A stretch of 64,000 nucleotides of DNA from Spirochaetota bacterium (GTDB taxonomy: Bacteria > Spirochaetota > Spirochaetia > Treponematales > UBA12059): NCBI GenBank assembly GCA_022703505.1, contig JAKLDN010000008.1:158422-222421 (forward strand). Reading direction: 5' to 3'. The notes beneath the pieces are model-generated. The model was not told the origin of the DNA, ran no database searches, and saw only the letters and a program-made list of their open reading frames with translations. This document shows, piece after piece, positions 6,103 through 45,292 of this stretch; the stretch's first letter is position 1; every line of letters begins with the position of its first letter. Both the position numbers and the translations under genes were made by a program.

Positions 6103-8565
6103 ATGGAGCAAAAAGACTACCGCCTGGCGGCGATCCTGTACACGGACATCGCGGGTTTCTCCCGGATGATGGAAAACGACGAGGCGGGAACCCTCCGGCT
6201 CCTCCACTTCCACAACGCCGTCATCACCGAGGCCGCCGAGCGGAGGCACGGCACGGTCATCAAGACCATCGGGGACGCCTTCCTGGTGGACTTCCGGAAC
6301 ACCGTGGAAGCCCTCCAGACCGCCCTGGAAATCCAGGACAAGTTCTACCAGTACAACCTTGAGCACAAGGAGCTGCCCCTCCTTGTCCGCGTCGGCATCC
6401 ATCTGGGGGACATCTATTTCTTCGAGAACGACGCCCTGGGGGAGGGCATCAACATAGCCGCCCGCCTCCAGTCCCTGGCCCACCCGGGGGCTATCTGCAT
6501 GTCCCAGGACGTGTACAACCAGGTCCTCAACAAGATCGACTTCCACGCCGTCAAGCTGGGCAAGGTCTCCCTCAAGAACATCACCAAGGAAATCCACGCC
6601 TACGAGATCTCCAGCGCCAACGTGGAATTCGACCCGAACCGGGACAAACCCCAGCCGGGCTTCCCGCCCGGGGCCTACGCCGGCCCGGAGCCCGCGGAAC
6701 TCGGGACCCTGGGGCCCACCCTGCCGGAAGCCCCGCCGAAGACGTCCCGGGAAGCCGGCACGGGCTCCCCGAAGCCCCGCGGCCCCGACCGGGACTACAG
6801 CCCCGAAGGCTCCGCGAACGTCCTTTCGGAGATCCGCAAGGCCATCCTGGACGACACCCGGACCGAGGGTCGGCGCCTCTCCGTGGACGAGGCCCTGAAG
6901 CGTTACGGGGACTACGGGGTGGAGGCCCACGAGGTCATCGCCCGCATGGCGGAACAGGGACTGCTCATCAAGCGGACCCCTTCCCGGACCGACGGGGCGG
7001 GGAAGTTCGACGGGGAATCCCTGGGCCGGGACATCGAGCGGGCGGTCCGGGGCATCGTGGCCCTGGTGGACGACAAGATCGGGGAGTACGAGGAGAGCCG
7101 TCGCCGGGATCGCGGCAGCGCCCGCGACGTCGGCCGCGACGGGAACCGCGAGGACGGCCGGGACCGGTTCGAACGCGGGATGGACCGCATGGAAGCCCGG
7201 CTGGAGCGCTTCGCCGAGCGCATGGAACGGGGCGCGGGACGCTGGAGCGAGAAGACGGCCATCAAGGCCGAGCTCCGGCGGCACGCGGAGACGACCGAGA
7301 CCGGGGAGTGGGACAAGGAGCTCAAGGACTCGGACTACTTCAAGCCCGGCCGGGAAGAGCTGGCGACCAGTTTCGAGGCCTACCGGGAGGGCCTGGCGGA
7401 AAAAGCCCGCAGGCTGAGGGGCGGATTCGCCGGAAACCTCATTTCCTTCCTGGGGGTGAACGCCCTCTTGTGGTTCATCAACCTGCAGGTCCAGGGAGAC
7501 TCGTCCTTCCTGTGGGCGGCCATCGTCACCGCGGGCTGGGGGACCGGGGTCGTCTCCAACCTGGCGGGCCTGGCCCGGACCAACGCCAAGCTCCGGGAGG
7601 CCGACCGGGTCCCGGACCTGGAGGGCGAGGCCCTGGCCACCTACAAGAAGCTGAACATAGTCCGGGACTCCATGGCCCGTCATACGGCCAGCGTCCTCAC
7701 CGTCCCGGCCCTGCTCTTCACCATCCACGCCGTGGCCACGCCCCTGGTCTTTCCCTGGTGGCTCATACCCTCGGGGATCATGGCGATCAGCTGGGTATCC
7801 CACGCCATCGCCTACGCCTCCGCCCGCCGACGCCTGGAGTCCAAGCTCTTCAAGGAGGCCGGGGTCGGAGGCTGGAGGGACCTCTTCCGAATAGGAAAGA
7901 CCCGCAAGGCCGCGGCCCGGGCCTCCGGCCCCTACGCCACCCTGTACGCCGAGGCGGAGACGGCCAAGGAAGCCATCGTCGCCCAGGTCAAGGCCGCGGG
8001 CAAGGACTCCCCCTTCGACAAGGAGCTCATCCCGTCCCTGGAGGAGTACGTGGGTCAGGTCCGCCTGCTCACCCAGACGGTCAACGAGATCGACTCCATC
8101 ATCGACGCCATCCCCATGAAGGACCTGGCCAAGGACAAGGCGGAGCTCAGGGGGAAGCTCGAGGGCAGCGTCAATTCCTCCTTGAAAAGCGAGTACGCCC
8201 GGTCCGTGGAGGAGATCGAGAGGCAGGAGAAGTCCTTCCAGGACCTCCAAGACCAGCGGGAGGTCCTCCACCTTCGCCTGAAATCCTCGGTCAATTCCCT
8301 CAAGCAGATGCAGCTGGACATGGCCCGGTACCGGGCCAACCCCGACCTGGCCCAGTCCGCGTCCCTGGACCAGGTACGCTCCCGCACCGGGGAGCTCTCC
8401 AAGTACCTGGAGGACCTCCGGAAGGGCTACGAGGAGGCCCGGGAGGCCGAAGATCCCTGGAAGGATCTGGAGCGCCAGGCGGCGGAACGGGAAGCCCGGG
8501 CCAAGGCCCTTCCGGAGTCGGAGGGCTCCGGGAACGAGGGCGGGGCGGATTCCCCGTCACGTTGA
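6103..8565 (+). CDS. Class III adenylate/guanylate cyclase (CHD domain) with long C-terminal TM + coiled-coil region
   Basis: N-terminal YTDIAGFS...IGDAF...GIHLGD..GEGINIAARL cyclase motifs. Central hydrophobic segments, then an ~250-aa coiled-coil tail. Start at MEQKDY, preceded by GGGAG. Confidence 0.8.
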   Translation: MEQKDYRLAAILYTDIAGFSRMMENDEAGTLRLLHFHNAVITEAAERRHGTVIKTIGDAFLVDFRNTVEALQTALEIQDKFYQYNLEHKELPLLVRVGIHLGDIYFFENDALGEGINIAARLQSLAHPGAICMSQDVYNQVLNKIDFHAVKLGKVSLKNITKEIHAYEISSANVEFDPNRDKPQPGFPPGAYAGPEPAELGTLGPTLPEAPPKTSREAGTGSPKPRGPDRDYSPEGSANVLSEIRKAILDDTRTEGRRLSVDEALKRYGDYGVEAHEVIARMAEQGLLIKRTPSRTDGAGKFDGESLGRDIERAVRGIVALVDDKIGEYEESRRRDRGSARDVGRDGNREDGRDRFERGMDRMEARLERFAERMERGAGRWSEKTAIKAELRRHAETTETGEWDKELKDSDYFKPGREELATSFEAYREGLAEKARRLRGGFAGNLISFLGVNALLWFINLQVQGDSSFLWAAIVTAGWGTGVVSNLAGLARTNAKLREADRVPDLEGEALATYKKLNIVRDSMARHTASVLTVPALLFTIHAVATPLVFPWWLIPSGIMAISWVSHAIAYASARRRLESKLFKEAGVGGWRDLFRIGKTRKAAARASGPYATLYAEAETAKEAIVAQVKAAGKDSPFDKELIPSLEEYVGQVRLLTQTVNEIDSIIDAIPMKDLAKDKAELRGKLEGSVNSSLKSEYARSVEEIERQEKSFQDLQDQREVLHLRLKSSVNSLKQMQLDMARYRANPDLAQSASLDQVRSRTGELSKYLEDLRKGYEEAREAEDPWKDLERQAAEREARAKALPESEGSGNEGGADSPSR

Positions 8566-20988: not shown

Positions 20989-21534
20989 CTAGTTCGACTC
21001 GTCCATCACCTTGTAGAGGGCGTCATACCGGGCCCGGACCAGCTTCAGCTCGGCCTCGTTCACTTTCGCCTCCTCAGGCAGGGCCAGGACGCTCTTCTTG
21101 GCTTCCTCGAGACCCTGGATCGCCTGGGCCTTGTCCGCGGGGGACAGGGACGGATTCGCCCGGATCTGGGCTATGGCCTCGTCGAACTGCTTGATCATAT
21201 CCGGATTCTGACGCTCGAAGGTGACGTAGGCGGCCAGCATGAAGGCCGTGCCCGCAACGTAGCTGAACCGCGCCAGGGTCCAGCCCTTGCCCTTCAGGAA
21301 GGCTTCCAGGTCCGCCCCCGCCATCATCGCGGCGAAGGCGCCGGGCCCCGCGGACTCGGCGGCGTCCAGCTGGCGGCCCTTGGCCTCCATCCACTGGACC
21401 ACCGAGGGCCAGTCGGCGATGAGCTTGGCCAGCTCCCGGTCCGTGAAGGGGGCGTCGGCGGACTGCGCCAGGACGGGGGCGCAGAGGGACAGGGCGAGGA
21501 GGAGGGCGGCGACAAGCCGGTTGATTGCTTTCAT
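20989..21534 (-). CDS. Secreted hypothetical protein (paralog 1)
   Basis: Signal peptide MKAINRLVAALLLALSLCAPVLA. Shares the DAPFTDxELAxxIxDWPxVxxW block with the next gene. Confidence 0.55.
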   Translation of the reverse strand: MKAINRLVAALLLALSLCAPVLAQSADAPFTDRELAKLIADWPSVVQWMEAKGRQLDAAESAGPGAFAAMMAGADLEAFLKGKGWTLARFSYVAGTAFMLAAYVTFERQNPDMIKQFDEAIAQIRANPSLSPADKAQAIQGLEEAKKSVLALPEEAKVNEAELKLVRARYDALYKVMDESN

Positions 21535-21613
21535 GGGAGAAAGTATAGCACGCTCCGTCAAGGACGGAAGGCAGGACGCGGACCGATGGCTCCGGCAGTC
21601 CACGGGAGTGTAT

Positions 21614-22021
21614 CTAATCCCCCGCCTTCCTGCGGGCTTCCGCGATCTCGCCCAGGCGCGTCTTCACGAGCTCGTACTCCTGTGGATCCCGGGCTCCTCC
21701 CGGATCGTCCGCTTCCACAAGGAGGCATAACCGGAAGACCGAACCCGCCATGTACCGGAACCGCTCCGAAGTCCAGTAGAATCGCCGCTTGAGTCGAGCC
21801 TCGAACTCGGATCCCTGGAACAATTCCGCAGCGGAGCGCTCCGGGTTCTCGTAATCGAACTTTCCTCCTCCAAGATGAATCCACTCCATTACGGGGTACC
21901 AGTCGTGGATAAATCGTGCGAGTTCCCAGTCGGTGAAGGGGGCGTCCTGGGTCTGGGATACGGCGGGAAAGGCGGACAGGGCTACGAGAACTATTAAAGG
22001 GAGTGTTTTTGAGCTTTTCAT
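21614..22021 (-). CDS. Secreted hypothetical protein (paralog 2)
   Basis: Signal peptide followed by QDAPFTDWELARFIHDWYPVMEW. Tandem paralog of 20989-21534. Confidence 0.55.
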   Translation of the reverse strand: MKSSKTLPLIVLVALSAFPAVSQTQDAPFTDWELARFIHDWYPVMEWIHLGGGKFDYENPERSAAELFQGSEFEARLKRRFYWTSERFRYMAGSVFRLCLLVEADDPGGARDPQEYELVKTRLGEIAEARRKAGD

Positions 22022-22198: not shown

Positions 22199-22627
22199 TC
22201 AGTAAAGCAGTTCGACCCGGAGGCCCGGAAACCGTTGGAAATCCCGATCTCCCGTGACGATCACCGCGTCCTGTTCCAGACACAGGGCGGCCAGGTGGGC
22301 GTCCGTCGTGAGGTTGCCCCCCGTACCCGAGGCGAGCAGGAGGTGCCCCAGTATCCCGAGATGGGCCTTTCCGGGATCCAGGATACGGACCGACGGCCGG
22401 GCCGCCAGGTCCCGGATCCACTCCAGGGCCTGTTCAATGGATAAAGGCCGCGGGAAGACACGGCTCGAGGTCGTGAGCCGGAGGAACCCGAGGATCACGG
22501 CCCAGGGAAGTCCGATCTCCTCCGTTCCCCCGTTCACCTCCTCCTTCAGCCACGCCTCCGCCCGCTCGTGGCGGGCCGAGCCCGCGTCGACGGCGTACAG
22601 CAGGACGTTCAGGTCCGGGATGATCAC
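22199..22627 (-). CDS. vapC: PIN-domain toxin VapC
   Basis: MIIPDLNVLLYA...D..D acidic PIN residues. 4-nt overlap with the upstream antitoxin. Confidence 0.8.
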   Translation of the reverse strand: MIIPDLNVLLYAVDAGSARHERAEAWLKEEVNGGTEEIGLPWAVILGFLRLTTSSRVFPRPLSIEQALEWIRDLAARPSVRILDPGKAHLGILGHLLLASGTGGNLTTDAHLAALCLEQDAVIVTGDRDFQRFPGLRVELLY

Positions 22628-22881
22628 TTGCGCAGGTCCCGCTTGGCGATCGCGGCGTCGGCCTCCAGGCTATCCGCGACCTCCCAGGCCTTGTCGAGGT
22701 CCGCGGCGGGAGTCCCCATCCGGTAGGAAACGGGCTTCCACGGGGATCGGCCGACCGGGTCGCGCCCCAGGCCCTTTGCCAGGGTACGGTTCACCTCGTC
22801 CTTGAGGGTCGTCGAGTCCCGGGCCGCCCGGTCCTGTAGCTCGCGCATCAATATGTCCGAAATATCGATCGTAGTGCGCAT
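22624..22881 (-). CDS. vapB: VapB-type antitoxin
   Basis: 85-aa ORF overlapping the VapC start by ATGA. Typical type II TA layout. Confidence 0.6.
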   Translation of the reverse strand: MRTTIDISDILMRELQDRAARDSTTLKDEVNRTLAKGLGRDPVGRSPWKPVSYRMGTPAADLDKAWEVADSLEADAAIAKRDLRK

Positions 22882-22983
22882 ATGGACATCATACTGCTAT
22901 ATCCCGCCGGGGTCAATATTTCGGGTCCGAATCCGCCCACACGAGTCTTTAACCGGCCGCAAACGATTTTTCTGATTTTTCAT

Positions 22984-23017
22984 TGACGTCGCGTACATAG
23001 TGTAGTATATACACTAT
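22984..23017 (+). promoter_or_regulatory. Sigma-70-like promoter (TTGACG-16-TATATA) overlapping a 21-bp palindrome ATAGTGTA-GTATA-TACACTAT
   Basis: -35 at 22984-22989. Palindrome at 22997-23017 covers the -10. Lies 48 nt upstream of the sirtuin start. Confidence 0.55.
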
Positions 23018-23064
23018 TAGATGACCCGCGGCCGATCCTCGTGACCGGCTTCGAGGAGGAAACC

Positions 23065-23883
23065 ATGGCAAAACGGCATCGAATCGATCCTTCGGACTAC
23101 AGGTCCATCGTCTTCCTGACCGGGGCGGGGATATCCGTGGCCTCGGGGATCCGCCCCTATCGGGGACCCGGGGGCCTGTGGAACGACGAGACCCTGGTCA
23201 AGTTCTCGGACCTCGAGACTTTCCGGAAGGATCCCCTAGCGGTCTGGCGCTTCATGAGCGAGACCCGGAGGATCTCCGCCGCCGCCCGGCCCAACCCCGC
23301 CCACCTCGCCCTGGCGGAGCTGGAGGTACGGCTGGAGGCGGAGCAGTCCCTGACGGTCATCACCCAGAACATCGACGGCCTCCACCGCCGGGCCGGGAGC
23401 TCCCACGTGATCGAGTTCCACGGCTCCGTGACCCGGACCCGGTGCTCCAACCACCGCTGCGACTTTCCGGCCTTCGAGGATCCCCTCCTGCACGCGGATT
23501 CCGTGCCCCTCTGCTCGGTCTGCGGCGCCCCCCTCCGGCCGGACGTGGTCTTCTTCGGGGAGATCATCCCCTCCGTCCGGGGCGCCGCGGCCATGGAGGC
23601 CCTGGCGGACTGCGACCTCTTCGTAGCCGTCGGCACCTCGGCCTCGGTATACCCCGCGACCCGCTTCGTGGAATGGGCCTGGAAGCGGAACGCCCGGACG
23701 GTGTTCGTGAACGTGGAGTCCTTCCGGGATCGGGATCCCGTGGCCGCCACCTGGTTCCGGGAGGAGTACATCGGGCCCGCGGAACGGATCCTGCCCCGGC
23801 TCTTCGGGGAGGGCCTGGACGAGGAGGAGCTGGACGGGTACCGGCCCGAGGTACTGGAGGATCTCCCGGAAGCCCGGGAGTAG
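23065..23883 (+). CDS. NAD-dependent protein deacylase, Sir2 family (CobB-like sirtuin)
   Basis: GAGISVASGIRPYRG, TQNIDGLHRRAG, EFHGS catalytic His. Zn-ribbon CSNHRC...CSVCG. GAGGAGG RBS. Confidence 0.85.
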   Translation: MAKRHRIDPSDYRSIVFLTGAGISVASGIRPYRGPGGLWNDETLVKFSDLETFRKDPLAVWRFMSETRRISAAARPNPAHLALAELEVRLEAEQSLTVITQNIDGLHRRAGSSHVIEFHGSVTRTRCSNHRCDFPAFEDPLLHADSVPLCSVCGAPLRPDVVFFGEIIPSVRGAAAMEALADCDLFVAVGTSASVYPATRFVEWAWKRNARTVFVNVESFRDRDPVAATWFREEYIGPAERILPRLFGEGLDEEELDGYRPEVLEDLPEARE

Positions 23884-23917
23884 CGGGAATTCTGGCACGA
23901 ACGCGAGGAGAAGAATC

Positions 23918-25699
23918 ATGGAGAAAACGGACTTGAGTTTCATGTTCCTGAAAAAGGGCCTGGCCGCCGGCCGGGACCTGGATCTCGTGCTCCGGGTGGA
24001 GACCCCGGCCCGTACCTCCGAGGGCGCACGCAAGCCCGCGGACCTGGCCCTGGTCCTGGACCGCTCCGGATCCATGCAGGGCCGCAAGATCATCTACGCC
24101 CGGCAGGGGGCGGCCGCCGCCGTGGGCCTCCTGGGGCCGGAAGACCAGGCCAGCCTGGTGCAGTTCGACGACCGGGTGGACCTCCTCCAGCCCCTGACCC
24201 CGGCGGGCCGGGCCGGTGCCCTCCAGGCCGCCATCGCGGGCATCGAGCCCCGGGGCAACACCGATCTCCACGGGGGCTGGGCCGCGGGAGCGGACAGCCT
24301 GGGGGACGGAGAACCCGGACGCGGCGCCCGGCGGGTCGTCCTGTTGACCGACGGCCTGGCCAACCACGGGGTGACCGACCCCGGGACCATCGCCGCGAAG
24401 GTGGCCGAGGCGGCCCGCCGGGGCATCGCCACCAGCGCCCTGGGCATCGGGGAGGACTTCAACGAGGAACTCCTGGAGGCCGTGGCCCGGGCCGGGGACG
24501 GCTCCTACACCTTCGTGGAATCCCCGGACCAGCTGCCCGCCTTCTTCGAAGCCGAACTCGCGGGATTCGCGAACCTGGCGGGCCGGGAAGTCCGGCTCGG
24601 CCTGGCCCCGGGACCGGGGATCCAGATCGTCTCGGTCCTGAACGACCTTCCGTCCTCGAACACGGGTTCCCTGGTCCTGCCCAACCTGGTCGCAGGGGGC
24701 CGGCAGGAGATTGGGCTTACCGTGCGGGCCCTGCCGGGCCTGACCGCCCGGCCCGGGGAGGAGACGGAGCTCCTGGCGGTCCGGCTGGAATGGACCGATC
24801 CGGAGACCGGGGAGCGCCGGGAAATGCGGCAGGCCGCCCGCGTCCGGGCGGTCGAGGATCGGGATTTCGAGGCCCTGCCCGCGGATCCCGCCGCAGTGGA
24901 GACCCTGGCCCTGCTCCGGACGGCCCGGGCCAAGCGGGAGGCTCTGAACGCCGTGGACCGGGGGGACGAAGCGGGAATCGCCCTCGCGATGGACCATATC
25001 CGGGCCATCCTGGCGGGAACGCCTCCCACCGAACGGACGGAGCGGGAGAAGATCTCCCTGGCCTCCCTGGAGGAGGACTTCCGGCTCCGGAAAATGGGCA
25101 AGTTCCGCAAGAACGTGCACTACGAGTCCTACGCCCGGGGCCACGCCATGGACGAGGCCCGGCTCTTCGGACATTATTCCCGGAAGCTCCTGTTCCTGGT
25201 CCGGGACAGGCTGGACCTGCACATCGGCAGCCTGGCCGGCTTCCCCTGCGACGCGATCGTGAACTCCCGGTCCGACGAGCCCGCCTCGGGGCTGGACGAG
25301 GCTCTCCGGGCCGCGGGGGGCCCCGCCTTCCGGGCCGCCTGCGAGGCGATCGGCAGGCTGGGCGCAGGTGCCGCGGCCGTCACGGGCGGCGGAGACCTGC
25401 CCGTCAAGTCGGTCATCCACGTGCGGGTCCCGGACTGGCGGGGTGGGAATGCCTCCGAGTTCGGAGCTCTATCGGAGTGCTACGCGGCCTGCCTCCTCGT
25501 CGCGAAGGAGCGGGGCTTCGGCCACGTGGCCTTCCCGGTCCTGGGCGCGGGGGGCAGAGGATTCCCCGTAGATGCCGCAGTTTCCCTTGGGCTGAGTGCC
25601 GCGGCCCAGTTCCTGTTCTCGAACCCGGCGCCGCGGCGGGTGACCTTCGTCTGTCCGGACGGTCCGGCAGCCGAACTGATCTGGGGCCAGCTTCCCTGA
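23918..25699 (+). CDS. vWA (MIDAS) + Macro domain fusion protein
   Basis: N-terminal DLALVLDRSGSM MIDAS motif. C-terminal macro fold: DAIVNSRSD, GGP, VIHV, FPVLGAGGRGFPVD. Confidence 0.8.
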   Translation: MEKTDLSFMFLKKGLAAGRDLDLVLRVETPARTSEGARKPADLALVLDRSGSMQGRKIIYARQGAAAAVGLLGPEDQASLVQFDDRVDLLQPLTPAGRAGALQAAIAGIEPRGNTDLHGGWAAGADSLGDGEPGRGARRVVLLTDGLANHGVTDPGTIAAKVAEAARRGIATSALGIGEDFNEELLEAVARAGDGSYTFVESPDQLPAFFEAELAGFANLAGREVRLGLAPGPGIQIVSVLNDLPSSNTGSLVLPNLVAGGRQEIGLTVRALPGLTARPGEETELLAVRLEWTDPETGERREMRQAARVRAVEDRDFEALPADPAAVETLALLRTARAKREALNAVDRGDEAGIALAMDHIRAILAGTPPTERTEREKISLASLEEDFRLRKMGKFRKNVHYESYARGHAMDEARLFGHYSRKLLFLVRDRLDLHIGSLAGFPCDAIVNSRSDEPASGLDEALRAAGGPAFRAACEAIGRLGAGAAAVTGGGDLPVKSVIHVRVPDWRGGNASEFGALSECYAACLLVAKERGFGHVAFPVLGAGGRGFPVDAAVSLGLSAAAQFLFSNPAPRRVTFVCPDGPAAELIWGQLP

Positions 25700-25744
25700 A
25701 AGCCGGGCCCGCCTATTAACCCGTCGAAGGAGGATCCGAGACCT

Positions 25745-26431
25745 ATGTACACTTACCCGTACCCCCACCCCGCGGTCACCGTGGACTGCGTCGTCTTCGG
25801 CCTGGACGAGGGGGAACTCAAGGTCCTCCTTATCCAGCGGGACCTGGACCCCTTCGCCGGAAAATGGGCCTTGCCCGGGGGCTTCATCCGCATGGACGAG
25901 GACCTGGAGGCTGCCGCCCGGCGGGAACTGGAGGAGGAGACGGGGGTCAAGAAGCTGTACATCGAGCAGCTCGGGGCCTTCGGGACCCCCGGCCGGGATC
26001 CCCGGGAGCGGGTGGTCACCGTGGCCTGGTGGGCGGTGGTCAACCTCTACGAGCACGAGGTGAAGGCCTCCACGGACGCCCGGAACGCCGCCTGGTTCCC
26101 CGTGGAGGAGCTTCCCGCCCTGGCCTTCGACCATCCGGTCATCCTGGACGCGGCGCTGGCCCGCGTGCGGGAAACCCTGCGCCGGGAACCCCTGGCCTTC
26201 GAGTTCCTGCCCCGGAAGTTCACCCTGACCCAGCTCCAGCGCTTCTACGAGACCGTCCTGGGCCGGCCGTTGGACAAGCGCAACTTCCGAAAGAAGGTCC
26301 TTTCCTACGGCCTGCTTGAGGAGCTCGAGGAGTACGAGGTGGACGTGGCCCACCGGGCCGCACAGCTCTATACCTTCCGCCGGGACCGCTACGAAACGTT
26401 CCGGGAGGAAGGCAGCCGGTTCCTGGTATAA
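25745..26431 (+). CDS. NrtR-like Nudix hydrolase-domain transcriptional regulator (Nudix + C-terminal winged helix)
   Basis: Nudix box GKWALPGGFIRMDEDLEAAARRELEEETG. C-terminal 90 aa is helix-rich and basic (KRNFRKKVLSYGLLEE). GAAGGAGG RBS. Confidence 0.7.
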   Translation: MYTYPYPHPAVTVDCVVFGLDEGELKVLLIQRDLDPFAGKWALPGGFIRMDEDLEAAARRELEEETGVKKLYIEQLGAFGTPGRDPRERVVTVAWWAVVNLYEHEVKASTDARNAAWFPVEELPALAFDHPVILDAALARVRETLRREPLAFEFLPRKFTLTQLQRFYETVLGRPLDKRNFRKKVLSYGLLEELEEYEVDVAHRAAQLYTFRRDRYETFREEGSRFLV

Positions 26432-26440
26432 GGAGGCCTC

Positions 26441-28504
26441 ATGCTGGGCGCGATTTCAGGGGACGTCCTGGGCTCGTTGTACGAGGCCTGGTCGATCAAG
26501 GACAAGAACTTCCGGCTCTTCCACGAGCTGGACCGGCCCACCGACGACTCCGTCCTCTCCCTGGCGGTGGCCAAGGCGATCCTGGACGCCGACGCCGAGG
26601 GCCGGTTGCCGGAAGCCGGGGACTACGAGCGGGAACTCCGGGCCTTCGGCCGCCGCTACCCCGACGCGGGCTACGGGGGCTCCTTCCGGGCCTGGGTGAA
26701 CGATCCCGTAGGCAAGCCCTACGAAAGCTTCGGGAACGGCTCGGCCATGCGGGCCTCCGCCGTGGGCTGGGCCTTCGGGGACGCGGAAACCGTCCTGACC
26801 CAGGCGGAACTCTCGGCCGCCCCGACCCACGGCCACCCGGAGGGCATCAAAGGAGCCCAGGCCGTCGCCCTGGCGGTCCTCCGGGCCCGGACGGGATCCT
26901 CGAAGGAGGAAATCCGCTCGGAGCTCTCCCGCCGCTTCGGCTACGACCTGGGCCGGACCGTGGACTCGATCCGGCCGGGCTACCCCTTCGAGGTCAGCTG
27001 CCAGGCCTCGGTCCCGGAGGCGATCGTCGCCTTCCTGGATTCCCGGGATTGGGAGGACGCGGTGCGGAACGCCGTCTCCCTGGGGGGCGACGCGGACACC
27101 CAGGCCTGCATCGCCGGGGCGATCGCCGAGGCCTTCTACGGCGGGGTTCCGCCCCGGGTCCTGGCCTGGGTCCTGCCCCGGCTGGAGGCCGGCCTCCTTT
27201 CGACCCTCTCGGACTTCGCGCGCCGCTTCCTGCCCGCCGACCGGGCCGCGGCCGTGGCCGCCGAGACCGCGGCCCGCGGTCTGCCCCGGGGAGTACCGGG
27301 GGCGGGCGGGAACCGGAAGGCCGGCGGAGCCGGCCCCGCCCCGGGCGACCGGAAGCGCCGCGGAGCGGCGCATGCCGGAGACCCGGGCAGGGACCCCGAC
27401 ACCCGGCACCCCCTGGCCCCCGCCCCGGGCTACCGGGTGGTCCTGGCCGGCTCGACCCGGGCCCGGATCGCCGACTACGCACGGCGCCTTTCCGCGGACC
27501 CAGGTCTCGCGGGGGCGCGGCTCCAGGCGGCCCTGGCGGACCTGGCTGTCCCCAGGTTTGACGCGGCCTGGCTCCTCGTCTCCCTCCTGGCCACCAAGAA
27601 GCCCCGGATCTTCGCGGAGAGCGAGGTGGCCGGGGACGGCTCGGACTGGACCCGGGAGGAGCTCGGGCTTTTGGGGGACATCGGCTTCGCGGTGCCCGTC
27701 ACGGTCTTCGACGACGGCCGCCACTCCGCCCCCCGGGTACACTCGACGCCCTTCGGGGCCACCCTGCTCTTCGCCCCCGGGGCCCTGTTGGCAGGGAGGC
27801 GGGGATCCCCCGCGGACGGGCACGTAGCCCCCGGCGGCCACATCGACCCGGTCCGGTACGGGGCCCTCTACGAGGGGCGGCTCCTCCCCCTCCTCCAGTA
27901 CGCGAGCGCCGTCTCCTCGGCGGCGGGCCGGAAGGCCCTGGTCACCGTGCCGGGCCTGGGCTGCGGCCAGTTCGCCGGACCTTTCCGGGGCCGCCTGGGA
28001 CCGTACCTGAGGGACGCCCTGGCGGGGATCCTGAAACGGAACGCGAAGATCCTGCCGGGCATCCGGGCCGTCCGCCTCGATCCCTACGACGAATGCGGGA
28101 ACGAGGACCGGCGCATCGGACGGATCGCCTTCCGGGTCCGCCCCCTGGCGGTGAACGAACGGAAGGGCACGGGGCTCGGCCTGCCCCAGCTCCGCCCGCC
28201 CCGGGACTACCAGGAGCCCGGGGACGACTTCTCGGACTGCGACCTCTTCAGCGTCGTCGCCTGGGACCCCGTCTCCTGGCCCGGGAACGACTACTGGGCC
28301 GGGGCCCGGGCCACCGACGACGGGGTCAAGGCCGCGGCCACGGACGCGATGTTCGCCCTTTCGGGCTTCCGGGGCCGCTACGACCCGGAGACCTGCGGAT
28401 ATCTGCCGCCCCCGGGGGTCCGCGCCTGGGAGGACCTGGTCCTGGAGCAGCGCCTGGTCCTGCGGGCCGTGGACAACGTGACGGTCGTCGGATCTCCGGG
28501 ATGA
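26441..28504 (+). CDS. ADP-ribosylglycohydrolase (DraG/ARH family) fused to a 400-aa uncharacterized C-terminal domain
   Basis: N-terminal ARH motifs (DDSVLSLA, GNGSAMRASAVGW, GGDADTQACIAGAIAEAFYG). The C-terminal half has a TVPGLGCGQFAG glycine-rich loop and no family I can name. AAGGAGG RBS. Confidence 0.75.
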   Translation: MLGAISGDVLGSLYEAWSIKDKNFRLFHELDRPTDDSVLSLAVAKAILDADAEGRLPEAGDYERELRAFGRRYPDAGYGGSFRAWVNDPVGKPYESFGNGSAMRASAVGWAFGDAETVLTQAELSAAPTHGHPEGIKGAQAVALAVLRARTGSSKEEIRSELSRRFGYDLGRTVDSIRPGYPFEVSCQASVPEAIVAFLDSRDWEDAVRNAVSLGGDADTQACIAGAIAEAFYGGVPPRVLAWVLPRLEAGLLSTLSDFARRFLPADRAAAVAAETAARGLPRGVPGAGGNRKAGGAGPAPGDRKRRGAAHAGDPGRDPDTRHPLAPAPGYRVVLAGSTRARIADYARRLSADPGLAGARLQAALADLAVPRFDAAWLLVSLLATKKPRIFAESEVAGDGSDWTREELGLLGDIGFAVPVTVFDDGRHSAPRVHSTPFGATLLFAPGALLAGRRGSPADGHVAPGGHIDPVRYGALYEGRLLPLLQYASAVSSAAGRKALVTVPGLGCGQFAGPFRGRLGPYLRDALAGILKRNAKILPGIRAVRLDPYDECGNEDRRIGRIAFRVRPLAVNERKGTGLGLPQLRPPRDYQEPGDDFSDCDLFSVVAWDPVSWPGNDYWAGARATDDGVKAAATDAMFALSGFRGRYDPETCGYLPPPGVRAWEDLVLEQRLVLRAVDNVTVVGSPG

Positions 28505-28655: not shown

Positions 28656-28813
28656 AAGTTTGCGCGCGCGTCGGGAGGACGAAGCCGACCGCCTCATGCT
28701 TCGTGAGCCCGCACCCTCCCTCTGGCGCCCGGCCCGGCCATGCCCGATACTTGAACCGAGGCGGCCGCCGCCCGGACACTCGCTCCCTTCGGCGCGGCCG
28801 GACTGGAGGTTCC

Positions 28814-30112
28814 ATGGATCCCCTGGCGATATCCCAGGCCCTCTCGGCCCTGGTCTTCGGGGCCCTGTCCGCGGGGAGTCTCCTCCTGGGCGCCTGGACC
28901 GGAATATTCCTGAAGCCGCCGCCCCGGGTCTCCGCCGCGGTCATGGCCTTCGGCGCGGGGGCCCTCTTCGCGGCCCTGTCCCTGGAACTGATCGGCGAGG
29001 CGGTGGAGCGCCTCCACGGGAACTTCTGGCCCATCGGACTGGGCTGCGTGGCCGGGGGCCTGCTCTTCGTCACCCTGGACCACCTGGTGAACGGCGCGGG
29101 AGGCTTCCTCCGCAAGCGCTCCACCCTGTCCCGGCGCCTCCGAGCGGACCGGAGGAAGGACGTCCGGCTCCTCCTGGAGAGTCTGGCCAAGGTCCCCCTC
29201 TTCGCCAGCCTGCCCCCCGAGGAGGTCCGCAGCCTGGCGGACCAGGTGACCCGGGTGCGCTGCGACGCCGGCACCCCGGTCATCCGCACCGGGGAGCCCG
29301 GGGCCGAGCTCTACCTGGTCGAGTCCGGCCGCCTGGAGGTATCCCGGGGGGGCGCAAGCCTGGCGGTCCTCGGGCCCGGGGACATGGTCGGGGAGATGGC
29401 CCTGCTCACCGGGGAGACCCGCACCGCGGACGTGACGACCCTGGAAGCGGCGGTCCTGCTCACCCTGCGCAAGGAAGCCTTCGACCGACTCCTGGCCGCG
29501 AACCCCCGGCTCCGGGAGGCGGTGGAGAGACTGTCCGGCCAGCGGCGGGAGGCCCTGGAGAAGGCGGCCGCCACGGTGGACCCTGCGGCCTGGGCCCGGA
29601 AGGCCGGGACCGGGGACTGGAAGCCCAGCTCCCTGGAGCTGGACGAGGCCTTCGCCCAGGCTGGGGGAAAGAAGAAGGGCGGGGCCCCCATGGGTATCTG
29701 GCTGGGCATCCTCCTGGACGGCGTCCCCGAGTCCGCGGTCATCGGTGCCAGCATGATCGGGGCCGAGAAGGCCAGCCTGGCCCTGATCCTGGGACTCTTC
29801 ATCGCCAACTACCCCGAGGCCCTGTCCAGCGCCGTGGGGATGCGGAAGATGGGCATGTCGGTGTGGAAGATCACCGCCCTCTGGGGCTCCATCGTGGCCC
29901 TGACCGCGGTGGGCGCGGGGATCGGCAACCTGGCCTTCCGCTCGGCCCCCGGGGAGCTGGTGGCCCTCTTCGAGAGCCTGGCCGCGGGCTCCATGCTGGC
30001 CATGCTGGCGGAGACCATGATGCCCGAGGCCTACGAGCACGGCGGTTCCGTCACCGGTATGGCCACCATCCTGGGCTTCGTGTCCGCGGTCTTCCTGCGG
30101 GTGGCGGGGTGA
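28814..30112 (+). CDS. ZIP-family metal transporter with an inserted cyclic-nucleotide-binding (CAP_ED) domain
   Basis: TM helices and GIxLHxxxEG-like ZIP blocks at both ends. Central cNMP fold (FASLPPEEV...GEPGAELYLVESG...GEMALL..RTA). GGAGG RBS. Confidence 0.75.
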   Translation: MDPLAISQALSALVFGALSAGSLLLGAWTGIFLKPPPRVSAAVMAFGAGALFAALSLELIGEAVERLHGNFWPIGLGCVAGGLLFVTLDHLVNGAGGFLRKRSTLSRRLRADRRKDVRLLLESLAKVPLFASLPPEEVRSLADQVTRVRCDAGTPVIRTGEPGAELYLVESGRLEVSRGGASLAVLGPGDMVGEMALLTGETRTADVTTLEAAVLLTLRKEAFDRLLAANPRLREAVERLSGQRREALEKAAATVDPAAWARKAGTGDWKPSSLELDEAFAQAGGKKKGGAPMGIWLGILLDGVPESAVIGASMIGAEKASLALILGLFIANYPEALSSAVGMRKMGMSVWKITALWGSIVALTAVGAGIGNLAFRSAPGELVALFESLAAGSMLAMLAETMMPEAYEHGGSVTGMATILGFVSAVFLRVAG

Positions 30113-30205
30113 TTCGGAATTCCGAGCCCCCTCGATAATCAGGATGGATTCCCGGAACCGTGATAGACTGAAGGATAGAGAATCATTACAAAGGAGCGTC
30201 CCTTC

Positions 30206-31186
30206 ATGAAGATCCACGTCATCGGCTGCGGCAACGCCTTTTCCAGCGAGTCCTTCAACCAGTCCTTCGTGATCGAGGAAGCCGGGCGGCGCATGCTCAT
30301 CGACTGCGGCATGCAGACCCCCCAGGCCCTGGTCACGGCCCGGTACAAGCCCCAGGACATCCACGACATCTACGTGAGCCACCTCCACGCGGACCACGTC
30401 GGGGGCCTGGAGTACTTCGCTTTCGCCCGGTACGACTGGGCCAAGCATCCCCGGTCCTGGTCGGAGGGGACCTACGCCCCCCGGCTGATCGGCAACGTCC
30501 AGCTCCTCCGGGACCTCTGGGACAAGACCCTCCGGGGCGGCCTGGAATCCATGGAGGGTTTCGTCTCGAACCTGGAGACCTTCTTCGAGCCGGTCCCCGT
30601 CGAGCCGAACAAGCGCTTCGAGTGGCAGGGCTGGACCGTGGACCTGATCCAGCAGATCCACATCATGTCGGGCTCGGTGATCATGCCCTCCTTCGGCATC
30701 CTCTTCAGCAGGACGGGCCGCAAGTCCGTGTACTTCGTGACGGACAGCCAGCACTGCTCGCCCCGGCAGATCGAGGAGTACTACAAGCGCGCGGACCTGA
30801 TCTTCCAGGACTGCGAGTGCACGGGCATGGACCTTCGCTTCCCCGAGGGCGCCAAGACCTACGTCCAGGACGGGGTCCCGAAGGCCTGGCCCGAGGACGA
30901 GATGGAGGCCCTGGACCTCCTGGCCCGGGGGATCGAGCCCGTGAAATGGTCCCGGTACAAGTTCTCCTCGGGGGTCCACGCCAACTACGCCCAGCTGGCG
31001 GGCTACGAGAGCGCCAACTCCATCAAGCTGGATCCCCAGGTCAAGGCCAAGATGTGGCTCTCCCACTACCAGGACTACGTCCTCATCGGCAAGGACCACT
31101 TCGGCAACGAGGTCGACTGGGCCGCGGAGGCGAAGAGAGACGGGTTCGCGGGCTTCGTCAAGCTGGGCCAGCGATTCGAGGTCTGA
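30206..31186 (+). CDS. MBL-fold metallo-hydrolase
   Basis: HLHADHVGG (HxHxDH) motif. AAGGAG RBS. Confidence 0.75.
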   Translation: MKIHVIGCGNAFSSESFNQSFVIEEAGRRMLIDCGMQTPQALVTARYKPQDIHDIYVSHLHADHVGGLEYFAFARYDWAKHPRSWSEGTYAPRLIGNVQLLRDLWDKTLRGGLESMEGFVSNLETFFEPVPVEPNKRFEWQGWTVDLIQQIHIMSGSVIMPSFGILFSRTGRKSVYFVTDSQHCSPRQIEEYYKRADLIFQDCECTGMDLRFPEGAKTYVQDGVPKAWPEDEMEALDLLARGIEPVKWSRYKFSSGVHANYAQLAGYESANSIKLDPQVKAKMWLSHYQDYVLIGKDHFGNEVDWAAEAKRDGFAGFVKLGQRFEV

Positions 31187-45043: not shown

Positions 45044-45250
45044 GTCGACGAAGCACGCGGCGCCTCGTTACCTTACAAACTACTGGAAATCGCCGAAGGG
45101 CGATGCCCTTCGGCGTCGAGCATATCCGGCGGATCGACGAAGCGCGAAGCGCTTCGTTGCCTTCAAACTACTGGAAATCGCCGAAGGGCGATGCCCTTCG
45201 GCGCCAAGCATATCCGGCGGATCGACGAAGCGCGAAGCGCTTCGTTGCCT
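45044..45250. repeat. About 2.4 tandem copies of an 88-bp unit, each with two hairpins
   Basis: Units start near 45044, 45132 and 45220. Each contains CGACGAAGCGC-gaa-GCGCTTCGTTG and CGCCGAAGGGC-gat-GCCCTTCGGCG stem-loops. Copy 1 is diverged. Confidence 0.7.
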
Positions 45251-45292
45251 TGAAAAAACGACGGCGTACCCTACGGTACGCCGTCGTTTTTT
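45251..45292. terminator. Bidirectional rho-independent terminator
   Basis: AAAAAACGACGGCGTACC-cta-CGGTACGCCGTCGTTTTTT. Perfect 13-bp stem flanked by an A6 and a T6 run. Confidence 0.85.

Follow-up and report, generated by a model that had tools for sequence, protein, structure and literature searches.

The locus

The 64-kb window analysed here (64,000 nucleotides of contig JAKLDN010000008.1, from a Spirochaetota bacterium) contains at positions 22997-23017 a 21-bp palindrome followed by four co-directional genes on the plus strand. This work concerns its probable role as the operator of the NrtR-type regulator encoded by the third of these genes. The first gene (23065-23883) encodes a CobB-type sirtuin, an NAD-dependent protein deacylase by annotation (Pfam SIR2, 1.2e-42; the top NCBIfam matches, NAD-dependent protein deacylase and CobB, are below cut-off). 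The second gene (23918-25699) encodes a fusion of VWA and Macro domains (Pfam) that resembles O-acetyl-ADP-ribose deacetylase, the NCBIfam models of which also match below cut-off. The third gene, nrtR (25745-26431), encodes a protein with the Nudix domain PF00293 and the NrtR winged helix PF21906, and its best NCBIfam match is NF050029, 'ADPR responsive transcriptional repressor' (ADPR, ADP-ribose), below the equivalog cut-off. The last gene (26441-28504) encodes an ADP-ribosylglycohydrolase fused to a MavL-type macro domain (ADP_ribosyl_GH 1.4e-33, MavL 5.6e-105), hereafter ARH-MavL. The three gaps between the genes measure 34, 45 and 9 bp.

An earlier note on this DNA, made from the sequence alone, had described the palindrome as a candidate operator for an NrtR-like regulator whose gene lies in the same operon. 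Both the identity of the regulator and the place of its gene agree with the domain matches given above.

The palindrome and its predicted promoter

The sequence of 22997-23017 is ATAGTGTAGTATATACACTAT, that is, ATAGTGTA-GTATA-TACACTAT, with 8-bp arms that are 100% complementary and a 5-bp spacer GTATA, exactly as the note had read it. The half-site cores are GTGT at 23000-23003 and ACAC at 23011-23014, which gives GTGT-N7-ACAC. As described by Rodionov et al. (2008, PMC2330246), NrtR binds palindromes of 21 bp that are built on a GT-N7-AC core and either overlap the promoter or come after it, and the site in the window has both this symmetry (a perfect 8+5+8 repeat) and this core (GT 23002-23003, AC 23011-23012), so the comparison with NrtR-type palindromes of about 21 bp made in the note was sound.

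Symmetry by itself was rejected as evidence, since 9 perfect 8-5-8 inverted repeats were counted in the window, where block shuffles give 2.3. The significance of the site therefore comes from its sequence-specific conservation. No second copy of the 21-mer was found in the window with up to 3 mismatches allowed (shuffles expect 0). A weight matrix derived from other loci gives the site 34.8 bits, where the training median is 30.6, and no further site was found in the 64 kb, the runner-up reaching 7.6 bits.

Regarding the promoter, a -35 hexamer TTGACG read by consensus lies at 22983-22988 (plus strand), 8 nt upstream of the palindrome, and the ATG of the sirtuin gene (23065) lies 48 nt after the end of the palindrome. 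The site is thus located between TTGACG and the start codon, as claimed before. The putative -10 hexamer, TATATA at 23006-23011 (plus strand), falls wholly within the predicted operator, with a 17-bp spacer from TTGACG; the site overlaps the promoter elements, and the promoter itself is a consensus prediction. The first gene has the ribosome-binding site GAGGAGG at 23053-23059 (plus strand), which is also conserved in two relatives described below (L116 and L136). Immediately 5' of the -35 hexamer there are two copies of a T-rich direct repeat, GATTTTTC (22965-22981, plus strand), which may be a weak UP-like element; L116, L136 and L081 keep the T-rich block CGATTTTTCCGATT in part (alignment A1).

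Conservation in close relatives

There are thousands of NrtR homologues, and the named ones are mostly from Spirochaetota metagenome-assembled genomes (MAGs). Close relatives of the locus were gathered by searching contigs that encode NrtR homologues and by scanning metagenomes with the 19-mer core of the palindrome. Seven loci (L081-L085, L116 and L136) have the identical 21-mer together with TTGACG at the same 8-nt offset, before nrtR or before the same operon, while their flanks have diverged and their NrtR identities range from 77 to 98%.

These seven loci differ in what the promoter precedes. L116 holds the whole four-gene operon with NrtR at 96% identity, and L136 stops inside the VWA gene, so that nrtR would lie beyond its end; in both, the vapBC, SIR2 and VWA genes are 83-98% identical to those of the window at the amino acid level. 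The divergent vapBC pair is also found in L081 (NrtR 98%), where the promoter directly drives nrtR and the SIR2 and VWA-macro genes are missing; a gene truncated by the contig end begins there 9 nt after nrtR. L082-L085 (NrtR 77%) have an nrtR-SIR2 operon, noted for L082 and L083 in particular, and no vapBC.

Three further relatives, all without vapBC, have a similar site. In L088 (NrtR 78%) the palindrome has two changes at its outer edges and precedes nrtR-ARH_MavL, without SIR2 or VWA-macro genes. In L086 (NrtR 78%) the palindrome is near-identical, and in L090 the regulator is 70% identical; in these two spirochaete relatives the sites lie between nrtR and operons encoding nadR-like, pnuC and either PARG or ARH genes, with one site for each divergent promoter (nrtR against nadR-like/pnuC/PARG in L086, nrtR-ARH against nadR-like/pnuC/ARH in L090). 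The note had taken the absence of the palindrome from orthologous loci as the finding that would refute it; on the contrary, the 21-mer is identical in the seven loci named above and the motif is found in all the relatives examined.

In alignment A1 the conserved islands are the TTGAC of the -35 hexamer and the palindrome, whereas the intervening 8 nt and the flanks on either side are divergent. In L081, L082, L086, L088, L116 and L136 the distance from TTGAC[G/T] to the palindrome downstream of it is exactly 8 nt, those 8 nt being variable, and TATATA is invariant in the same six loci. L090 has TTGACA 9 nt upstream and TATTAT in place of TATATA. Therefore the overlap of the palindrome with the -10 region and its offset from the -35 hexamer, both put forward in the note, are conserved among the relatives, with the -10 assigned by consensus. 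Among the other loci that have the same 19-mer, 21 of the 47 sites have TTGAC[A/G/T] at a distance of 8-9 nt, and in these the opposite strand supplies a -10 TATACT at the centre, 16-17 bp from TTGAC[A/G/T]. The loci of the window type are read the other way round: there TTGACG is 8 nt distant and the -10 is TATATA. Since the -10 is inside the operator in both arrangements, the geometry would be that of a steric repressor.

The comparison of L081 with the window also bears on the history of the operon. Both have the same vapBC genes, promoter and candidate operator, and L081 lacks a segment of 2.7 kb with the SIR2 and VWA-macro genes (window 23065-25744 against L081 3049-3093). The homology ends around 20 nt past the palindrome and picks up again at the ribosome-binding site of nrtR, AGGAGGATC. 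Judging from the alignment, this is a recent gain or loss of a cassette behind a fixed putative promoter-operator, and the predicted cassette is gaining or losing modules between near-identical genomes.

A separate observation concerns L082, the HGW-Spirochaetae-7 relative, where the arms at 7090-7128 are lengthened to 17 bp, GCATCCATAATAGTGTA-GTATA-TACACTATTATGGATGC, far beyond a 21-bp operator.

The motif across phyla

The search was extended to at least 80 nrtR loci whose products are 52-66% identical to the NrtR of the window, from Planctomycetota, Myxococcota, Verrucomicrobiota, Cyanobacteria, Bacteroidota and others. The 80 loci listed had been retrieved by peptide patterns, DKRNFRKK among them. 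With up to 3 mismatches allowed across the 16 arm positions, the generalised motif WTAGTGTn-N5-nACACTAW gave 61 matches in 50 of these 80 loci, from many phyla, while 200 control palindromes with permuted arms gave 2.5 +/- 2.6 matches with a maximum of 18, an enrichment of around 25-fold. Of the matches, 32 lie within 200 bp upstream of nrtR and the remainder mostly 1-5 kb upstream; at least one distant match heads a co-directional pncB-nrtR string (L021). The position matrix is W-T-A-G-T-G-T-(a/c)-N5-(t/g)-A-C-A-C-T-A-W with a free spacer, and the near-invariant positions are G4, T5, G6 and T7 with their mirror positions, that is, GTGT/ACAC. This strong enrichment beside nrtR across phyla is what one expects of a candidate NrtR operator, and in this respect the proposal of the note was upheld.

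The exact 19-mer core was found in 46 metagenome loci whose GC contents range from 29 to 70%, the same-operon loci L116 and L136 among them. Elsewhere it adjoins nrtR in, for example, L098, L100, L109, L113, L118 and L120, and it lies upstream of the NAPRTase gene pncB in L092 and L095, confirmed with Pfam. Further NAPRTase genes were recognised by eye from the N-terminal signature D-x-D-F/L-Y-K-x-T-M, and other copies precede genes of the isochorismatase type (PncA-like) or a PnuC gene. The site is thus conserved in orthologous nrtR operons, identically in the seven close relatives, and upstream of the regulon genes pncB, PncA-like and pnuC. Furthermore, the 19-mer lies 5' of radical-SAM genes, including one for a conserved 291-aa protein (L103, L107, L126, L130, L108), and these are possible unrecognised members of the NrtR regulon.

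As a side observation, candidate operators in tandem, 22-23 bp from start to start, lie upstream of nrtR in L005, L006, L010, L027, L067, L003, L040, L015 and L062. Such tandem sites, found in many phyla, resemble those of AraR from Bacteroides thetaiotaomicron (BtAraR) and NrtR from Shewanella (SoNrtR).

The regulator and its predicted recognition of DNA

The closest protein of solved structure is BtAraR (5BS6/5DD4, E 2.4e-58); SoNrtR (3GZ5/3GZ6) is more distant (E 2.9e-30). In the BtAraR-DNA crystal, the GTGT motif is defined by four residues of the recognition helix, Lys179, Arg180, Asn181 and Lys184, of which Arg180 intercalates, and by Arg205 of the wing, and the operators of BtAraR have the form AGTGTA-N5-TACAC (PMC4666351). 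The regulator of the window has a recognition helix, DKRNFRK, identical to that of BtAraR; the wing Arg205 is conserved and Lys204 is replaced by His. The predicted operator is also in the same register as the DNA of that crystal (PDB 5DD4; PMC4666351), and GTGT and ACAC are 7 bp apart in both (G7-T10 and A18-C21 in the crystal DNA). By homology, then, the recognition helix matches the DNA of the putative operator, and the cognate nrtR gene lies inside the operon that the site would control.

Weighing the alternatives

The comparative evidence and the structural homology support the interpretation of the palindrome as an operator, and we put at about 85% the probability that it serves the NrtR repressor, whose gene is the third of the operon. 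As far as sequence can tell, the site has every feature of an NrtR operator described by Rodionov et al. (2008, PMC2330246).

Several points weigh against this interpretation. The binding of NrtR to the site and the repression of the operon are predictions. The -10 was assigned by consensus and is a guess. The final T that is usual in this element is missing from TATATA, and TTGACG/TATATA escaped the promoter scanner, which requires a T at the last -10 position (position 6, here an A). The window has a single site, with no tandem partner beside the palindrome, whereas many relatives have tandem sites. The DKRNFRK helix is present in all of the 101 full-length homologues surveyed, and this universality is partly due to ascertainment, because 80 of them were retrieved with patterns that include DKRNFRKK. 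Finally, that the four genes share one transcript, which we consider probable, is read from the short gaps and from the promoter scanner having called no internal consensus promoter between them.

Another point of this kind concerns the effector, and the ligand, not the site, is where the only serious open alternative lies. The palindrome may be an NrtR operator whose inducer is not free ADP-ribose but O-acetyl-ADP-ribose, phospho-ADPR, NAD(P), NaAD or a pentose, as in the AraR/XylR branch. BtAraR, the closest solved homologue, senses L-arabinose, and NdnR of C. glutamicum senses NAD, so the effector is not readable from family membership. SoNrtR is also released in vitro by pADPR, NaAD, NADH and NADP (PMC2330246). 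The operon of the window, moreover, begins with a sirtuin gene. The direct product of sirtuins is O-acyl-ADPR.

Nevertheless, the features of the protein and of the loci make such another inducer unlikely. Arg41 and Arg98 of SoNrtR contact ADPR, and the regulator of the window has Arg at both positions (in IQRD and RDPRER). The Arg98 equivalent is kept in 99 of the 101 homologues, whereas BtAraR has Gly there: in the AraR pocket it is Gly89 that is found, with Tyr5 filling the nucleotide cleft, and AraR controls ara genes. The Nudix box GX5EX7REUXEEXGU is intact in the window NrtR (GFIRMDEDLEAAARRELEEETGV) and degenerate in BtAraR. With Arg at the Gly89 position and an intact box, a pocket of the arabinose type was not found. 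No arabinose or pentose-utilisation genes were found in the window or in the related loci, and the gene context in every relative examined is that of NAD salvage and of hydrolases that release ADP-ribose. Regarding the known regulators, ADPR abolishes the binding of NrtR to DNA in electrophoretic mobility shift assays (EMSA) and, of the ligands tried in vitro on two NrtRs, dissociated both most effectively (PMC2330246), and ADP-ribose also releases MsNrtR of Mycobacterium smegmatis (PMC6800001). The cyanobacterial NuhA, with an intact Nudix box, is an active ADPR pyrophosphatase, while in Slr1690 and SO1979, which are inactive, the box is altered (PMC2330246). Thus ADP-ribose is probably the inducer, judging from the intact Nudix box, the Arg that matches Arg98 of SoNrtR and the context of the genes.

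A much less probable explanation is that the palindrome has no dedicated binding protein and is a bare promoter with an AT-rich -10 that is symmetric by chance, or a hairpin in the RNA of the 5' leader. The centre of the palindrome is indeed a -10-like hexamer, its arms can form an 8-bp hairpin, and the 9 perfect 8-5-8 repeats of the window make such symmetry less striking. However, conservation falls on the arm cores GTGT/ACAC and not on the centre alone: in other phyla the spacer varies freely while the arms stay, which together with the roughly 25-fold enrichment over the permuted arms we consider very hard to reconcile with a chance symmetry. Under the proposed promoter the palindrome would lie mostly upstream of the transcription start. 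An RNA element was rejected because no Rfam family matched and the RNA fold was unremarkable (z = -1.27).

The least probable explanation is that the palindrome belongs to the divergent vapBC genes (22199-22881, minus strand), as the operator of the VapB antitoxin (vapB 22624-22881) or as an element that both sides of the divergent region share. Antitoxins of type II bind palindromic sites in the promoters of their own genes, and in the window, L081, L116 and L136 the vapBC pair lies divergently beside the site. We rejected this possibility because vapB has its own promoter, TTGACC-17-TATGAT at 22916-22888, around 80 bp from the palindrome, and because the palindrome follows nrtR into loci without vapBC (L082-L085, L086, L088, L090) and elsewhere also precedes pncB, pnuC and PncA-like genes.

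Comparison with known systems

The NrtR operator remains the preferred reading of the palindrome, and most of its features have counterparts in the NrtR regulons of NAD metabolism (PMC2330246, which includes groups of the Cyanobacteria and Pirellula type). There, as in the window, the operator is a 21-bp GT-N7-AC palindrome at the promoter, the regulator combines Nudix and winged-helix domains, and nrtR is often within the operon that it controls; the genes that the same motif precedes in the loci found here, pncB, PncA-like and pnuC, are also of this kind. Unlike those regulons, the putative targets in the window are the sirtuin, VWA-macro and ARH-MavL genes and not NAD synthesis. Moreover, unlike Slr1690 and SO1979, which were tested and have no hydrolase activity (PMC2330246), the window NrtR has an intact Nudix box.

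BtAraR shares with the window the DKRNFRK helix, the wing Arg and the GTGT-N7-ACAC register (PMC4666351). It differs in that it senses L-arabinose, has a degenerate Nudix box with Gly89 in place of the Arg that contacts ADPR, and regulates genes for the use of arabinose, usually by way of tandem sites. For MsNrtR, experiments showed auto-repression by binding to a palindromic site in the promoter of its gene, with ADP-ribose as the ligand that releases it (PMC6800001), which is the same scheme as the one proposed here. Unlike the window, its palindrome has 23 bp (GTTTTCGA-N7-TCGAAAAC) and its target is nadA/B/C.

Two systems come closer in the genes controlled. The predicted regulon nrtR1-draG-SCO1765 of Streptomyces, labelled 'ADPR' in Table 1 of PMC2330246, is, like the operon proposed here, an autoregulated nrtR operon with an ADP-ribosylglycohydrolase and not with NAD synthesis, but it belongs to another NrtR branch with another motif (Actinobacteria-2a) and has no sirtuin, VWA-macro or MavL genes. 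The other one is the group of ADP-ribosylglycohydrolase (ARG)-centric systems that Iyer, Burroughs, Anantharaman and Aravind (2022, PMC9503650) proposed to act against viral ADP-ribosylation, with Nudix-HTH (helix-turn-helix) or WYL repressors, vWA chaperones and Macro accessories, as set out in the part of that article concerned with them. Like these systems, the window has an ARG gene with a Nudix-HTH repressor (the ADP_ribosyl_GH gene at 26441-28504 adjoins that of NrtR). A vWA and two macro-type domains are also present in the operon; accessories of this kind are optional in the definition given in that part. The logic described there is also the one proposed here, off by default and induced by released ADP-ribose. 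According to the same part, however, ARG-centric systems are defined by having no linked ADP-ribosyltransferase (ART) or sirtuin, and the operon of the window is headed by a SIR2 gene. It therefore lacks one defining feature of these systems because a sirtuin is coupled to it. A phosphatase is said there to be coupled in around 55% of the systems; no phosphatase domain was found in the operon of the window with Pfam. Section 3.8 of that article gives no operator sequence for the Nudix-HTH systems. As far as these descriptions go, the Streptomyces and the ARG-centric cases may be considered two precedents for NrtR-type repressors on genes for ADP-ribose removal.

We also examined whether the operon corresponds to a known defence system in PADLOC. 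The sirtuin, VWA-macro and ARH-MavL proteins had no match, and NrtR had only one weak match in the Nudix region (PDC-S07, E 2.4e-09). A known defence system was rejected, as PADLOC gave nothing convincing for the four proteins of the operon.

Other features of the window

A 12-nt inverted repeat (22857-22868 / 22913-22924, 92% complementary) brackets the start and the promoter of vapB. It is not conserved in L081, L116 and L136, so it is probably due to chance. The linker between the ARH and MavL parts of the last gene (27200-27500) has 82% GC and is of low complexity, rich in Pro, Gly and Arg.

After the operon, the gene at 28703-30112 encodes a cNMP-binding domain fused to a ZIP-type transporter, and the following one (30206-31186) encodes a protein with the metallo-beta-lactamase fold that matches the anti-Pycsar Apyc1 family; the pair (28703-31186) may be a chromosomal cyclic-nucleotide sensor and phosphodiesterase. 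On the minus strand, at 20989-22021, there are two adjacent small paralogues with N-termini like signal peptides and the common motif DAPFTDxELAxxIxDWPxVxxW. Further away, 45045-45292 is a tandem repeat of 88 bp (2.4 copies, 92% matches) with two perfect 8-5-8 hairpins per unit, and 3' of it come a strong terminator-like hairpin, AAAAAACGACGGCGTACC...GGTACGCCGTCGTTTTTT, and an apparent 3' end of a tRNA on the minus strand.

Proposed mechanism and significance

The mechanism that we propose would work as follows. An NrtR dimer would contact GTGT with one of its winged-helix domains and ACAC with the other, these half-sites being 7 bp apart and straddling the -10, and the bound dimer would exclude RNA polymerase, so that the sirtuin, VWA-macro, nrtR and ARH-MavL genes would be repressed together. 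Since nrtR belongs to this jointly repressed operon, it would be autoregulated. Free ADP-ribose, or a close derivative, would bind in the Nudix domain and reorient the winged helices, releasing the DNA. The enzymes of the operon are all predicted to yield free ADP-ribose: the sirtuin would make O-acyl-ADP-ribose, which the macro domain would deacylate, and ARH and MavL would strip ADP-ribose from modified proteins. NrtR, with its intact Nudix box, may itself destroy ADP-ribose. The circuit would thus be both inducible and self-limiting, because the enzymes are predicted to raise ADPR while the Nudix domain of NrtR may lower it. In this scheme the repression, the inducer and the chemistry of the enzymes are inferred, and the site, its position and its conservation come directly from the sequence.

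The class of the operator, its geometry and the autoregulation are textbook for the NrtR family, and no new regulatory principle is revealed. What is moderately new is the content of the regulon, that is, a CobB-type sirtuin, VWA-macro, NrtR and ARH-MavL. A further new element is that a predicted ADPr-centred system now has a site open to direct testing. As a broader and rather tentative idea, which could well prove wrong, this high-GC lineage (the nearest named relatives are Spirochaetota MAGs) may have a rewired NrtR that senses and probably hydrolyses ADP-ribose and that governs a modular cassette for de-acylation and de-ADP-ribosylation, not NAD salvage. It would form a feed-forward, self-limiting circuit for a stress response or for defence against phage ADP-ribosyltransferases, and the 19-mer, with operator and -10, would be a portable module across phyla from 29 to 70% GC.

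With the site, the geometry of the promoter and a structural rationale available, work by EMSA, with reporters and with ligands can be planned directly. The NrtR regulons of Spirochaetota, Planctomycetota, Myxococcota, Verrucomicrobiota and Cyanobacteria can be mapped by means of the motif WTAGTGTn-N5-nACACTAW. For a class of regulators that has been studied mostly in NAD biosynthesis, the palindrome provides a concrete candidate operator and would link the class to an operon predicted to reverse protein acylation and ADP-ribosylation.

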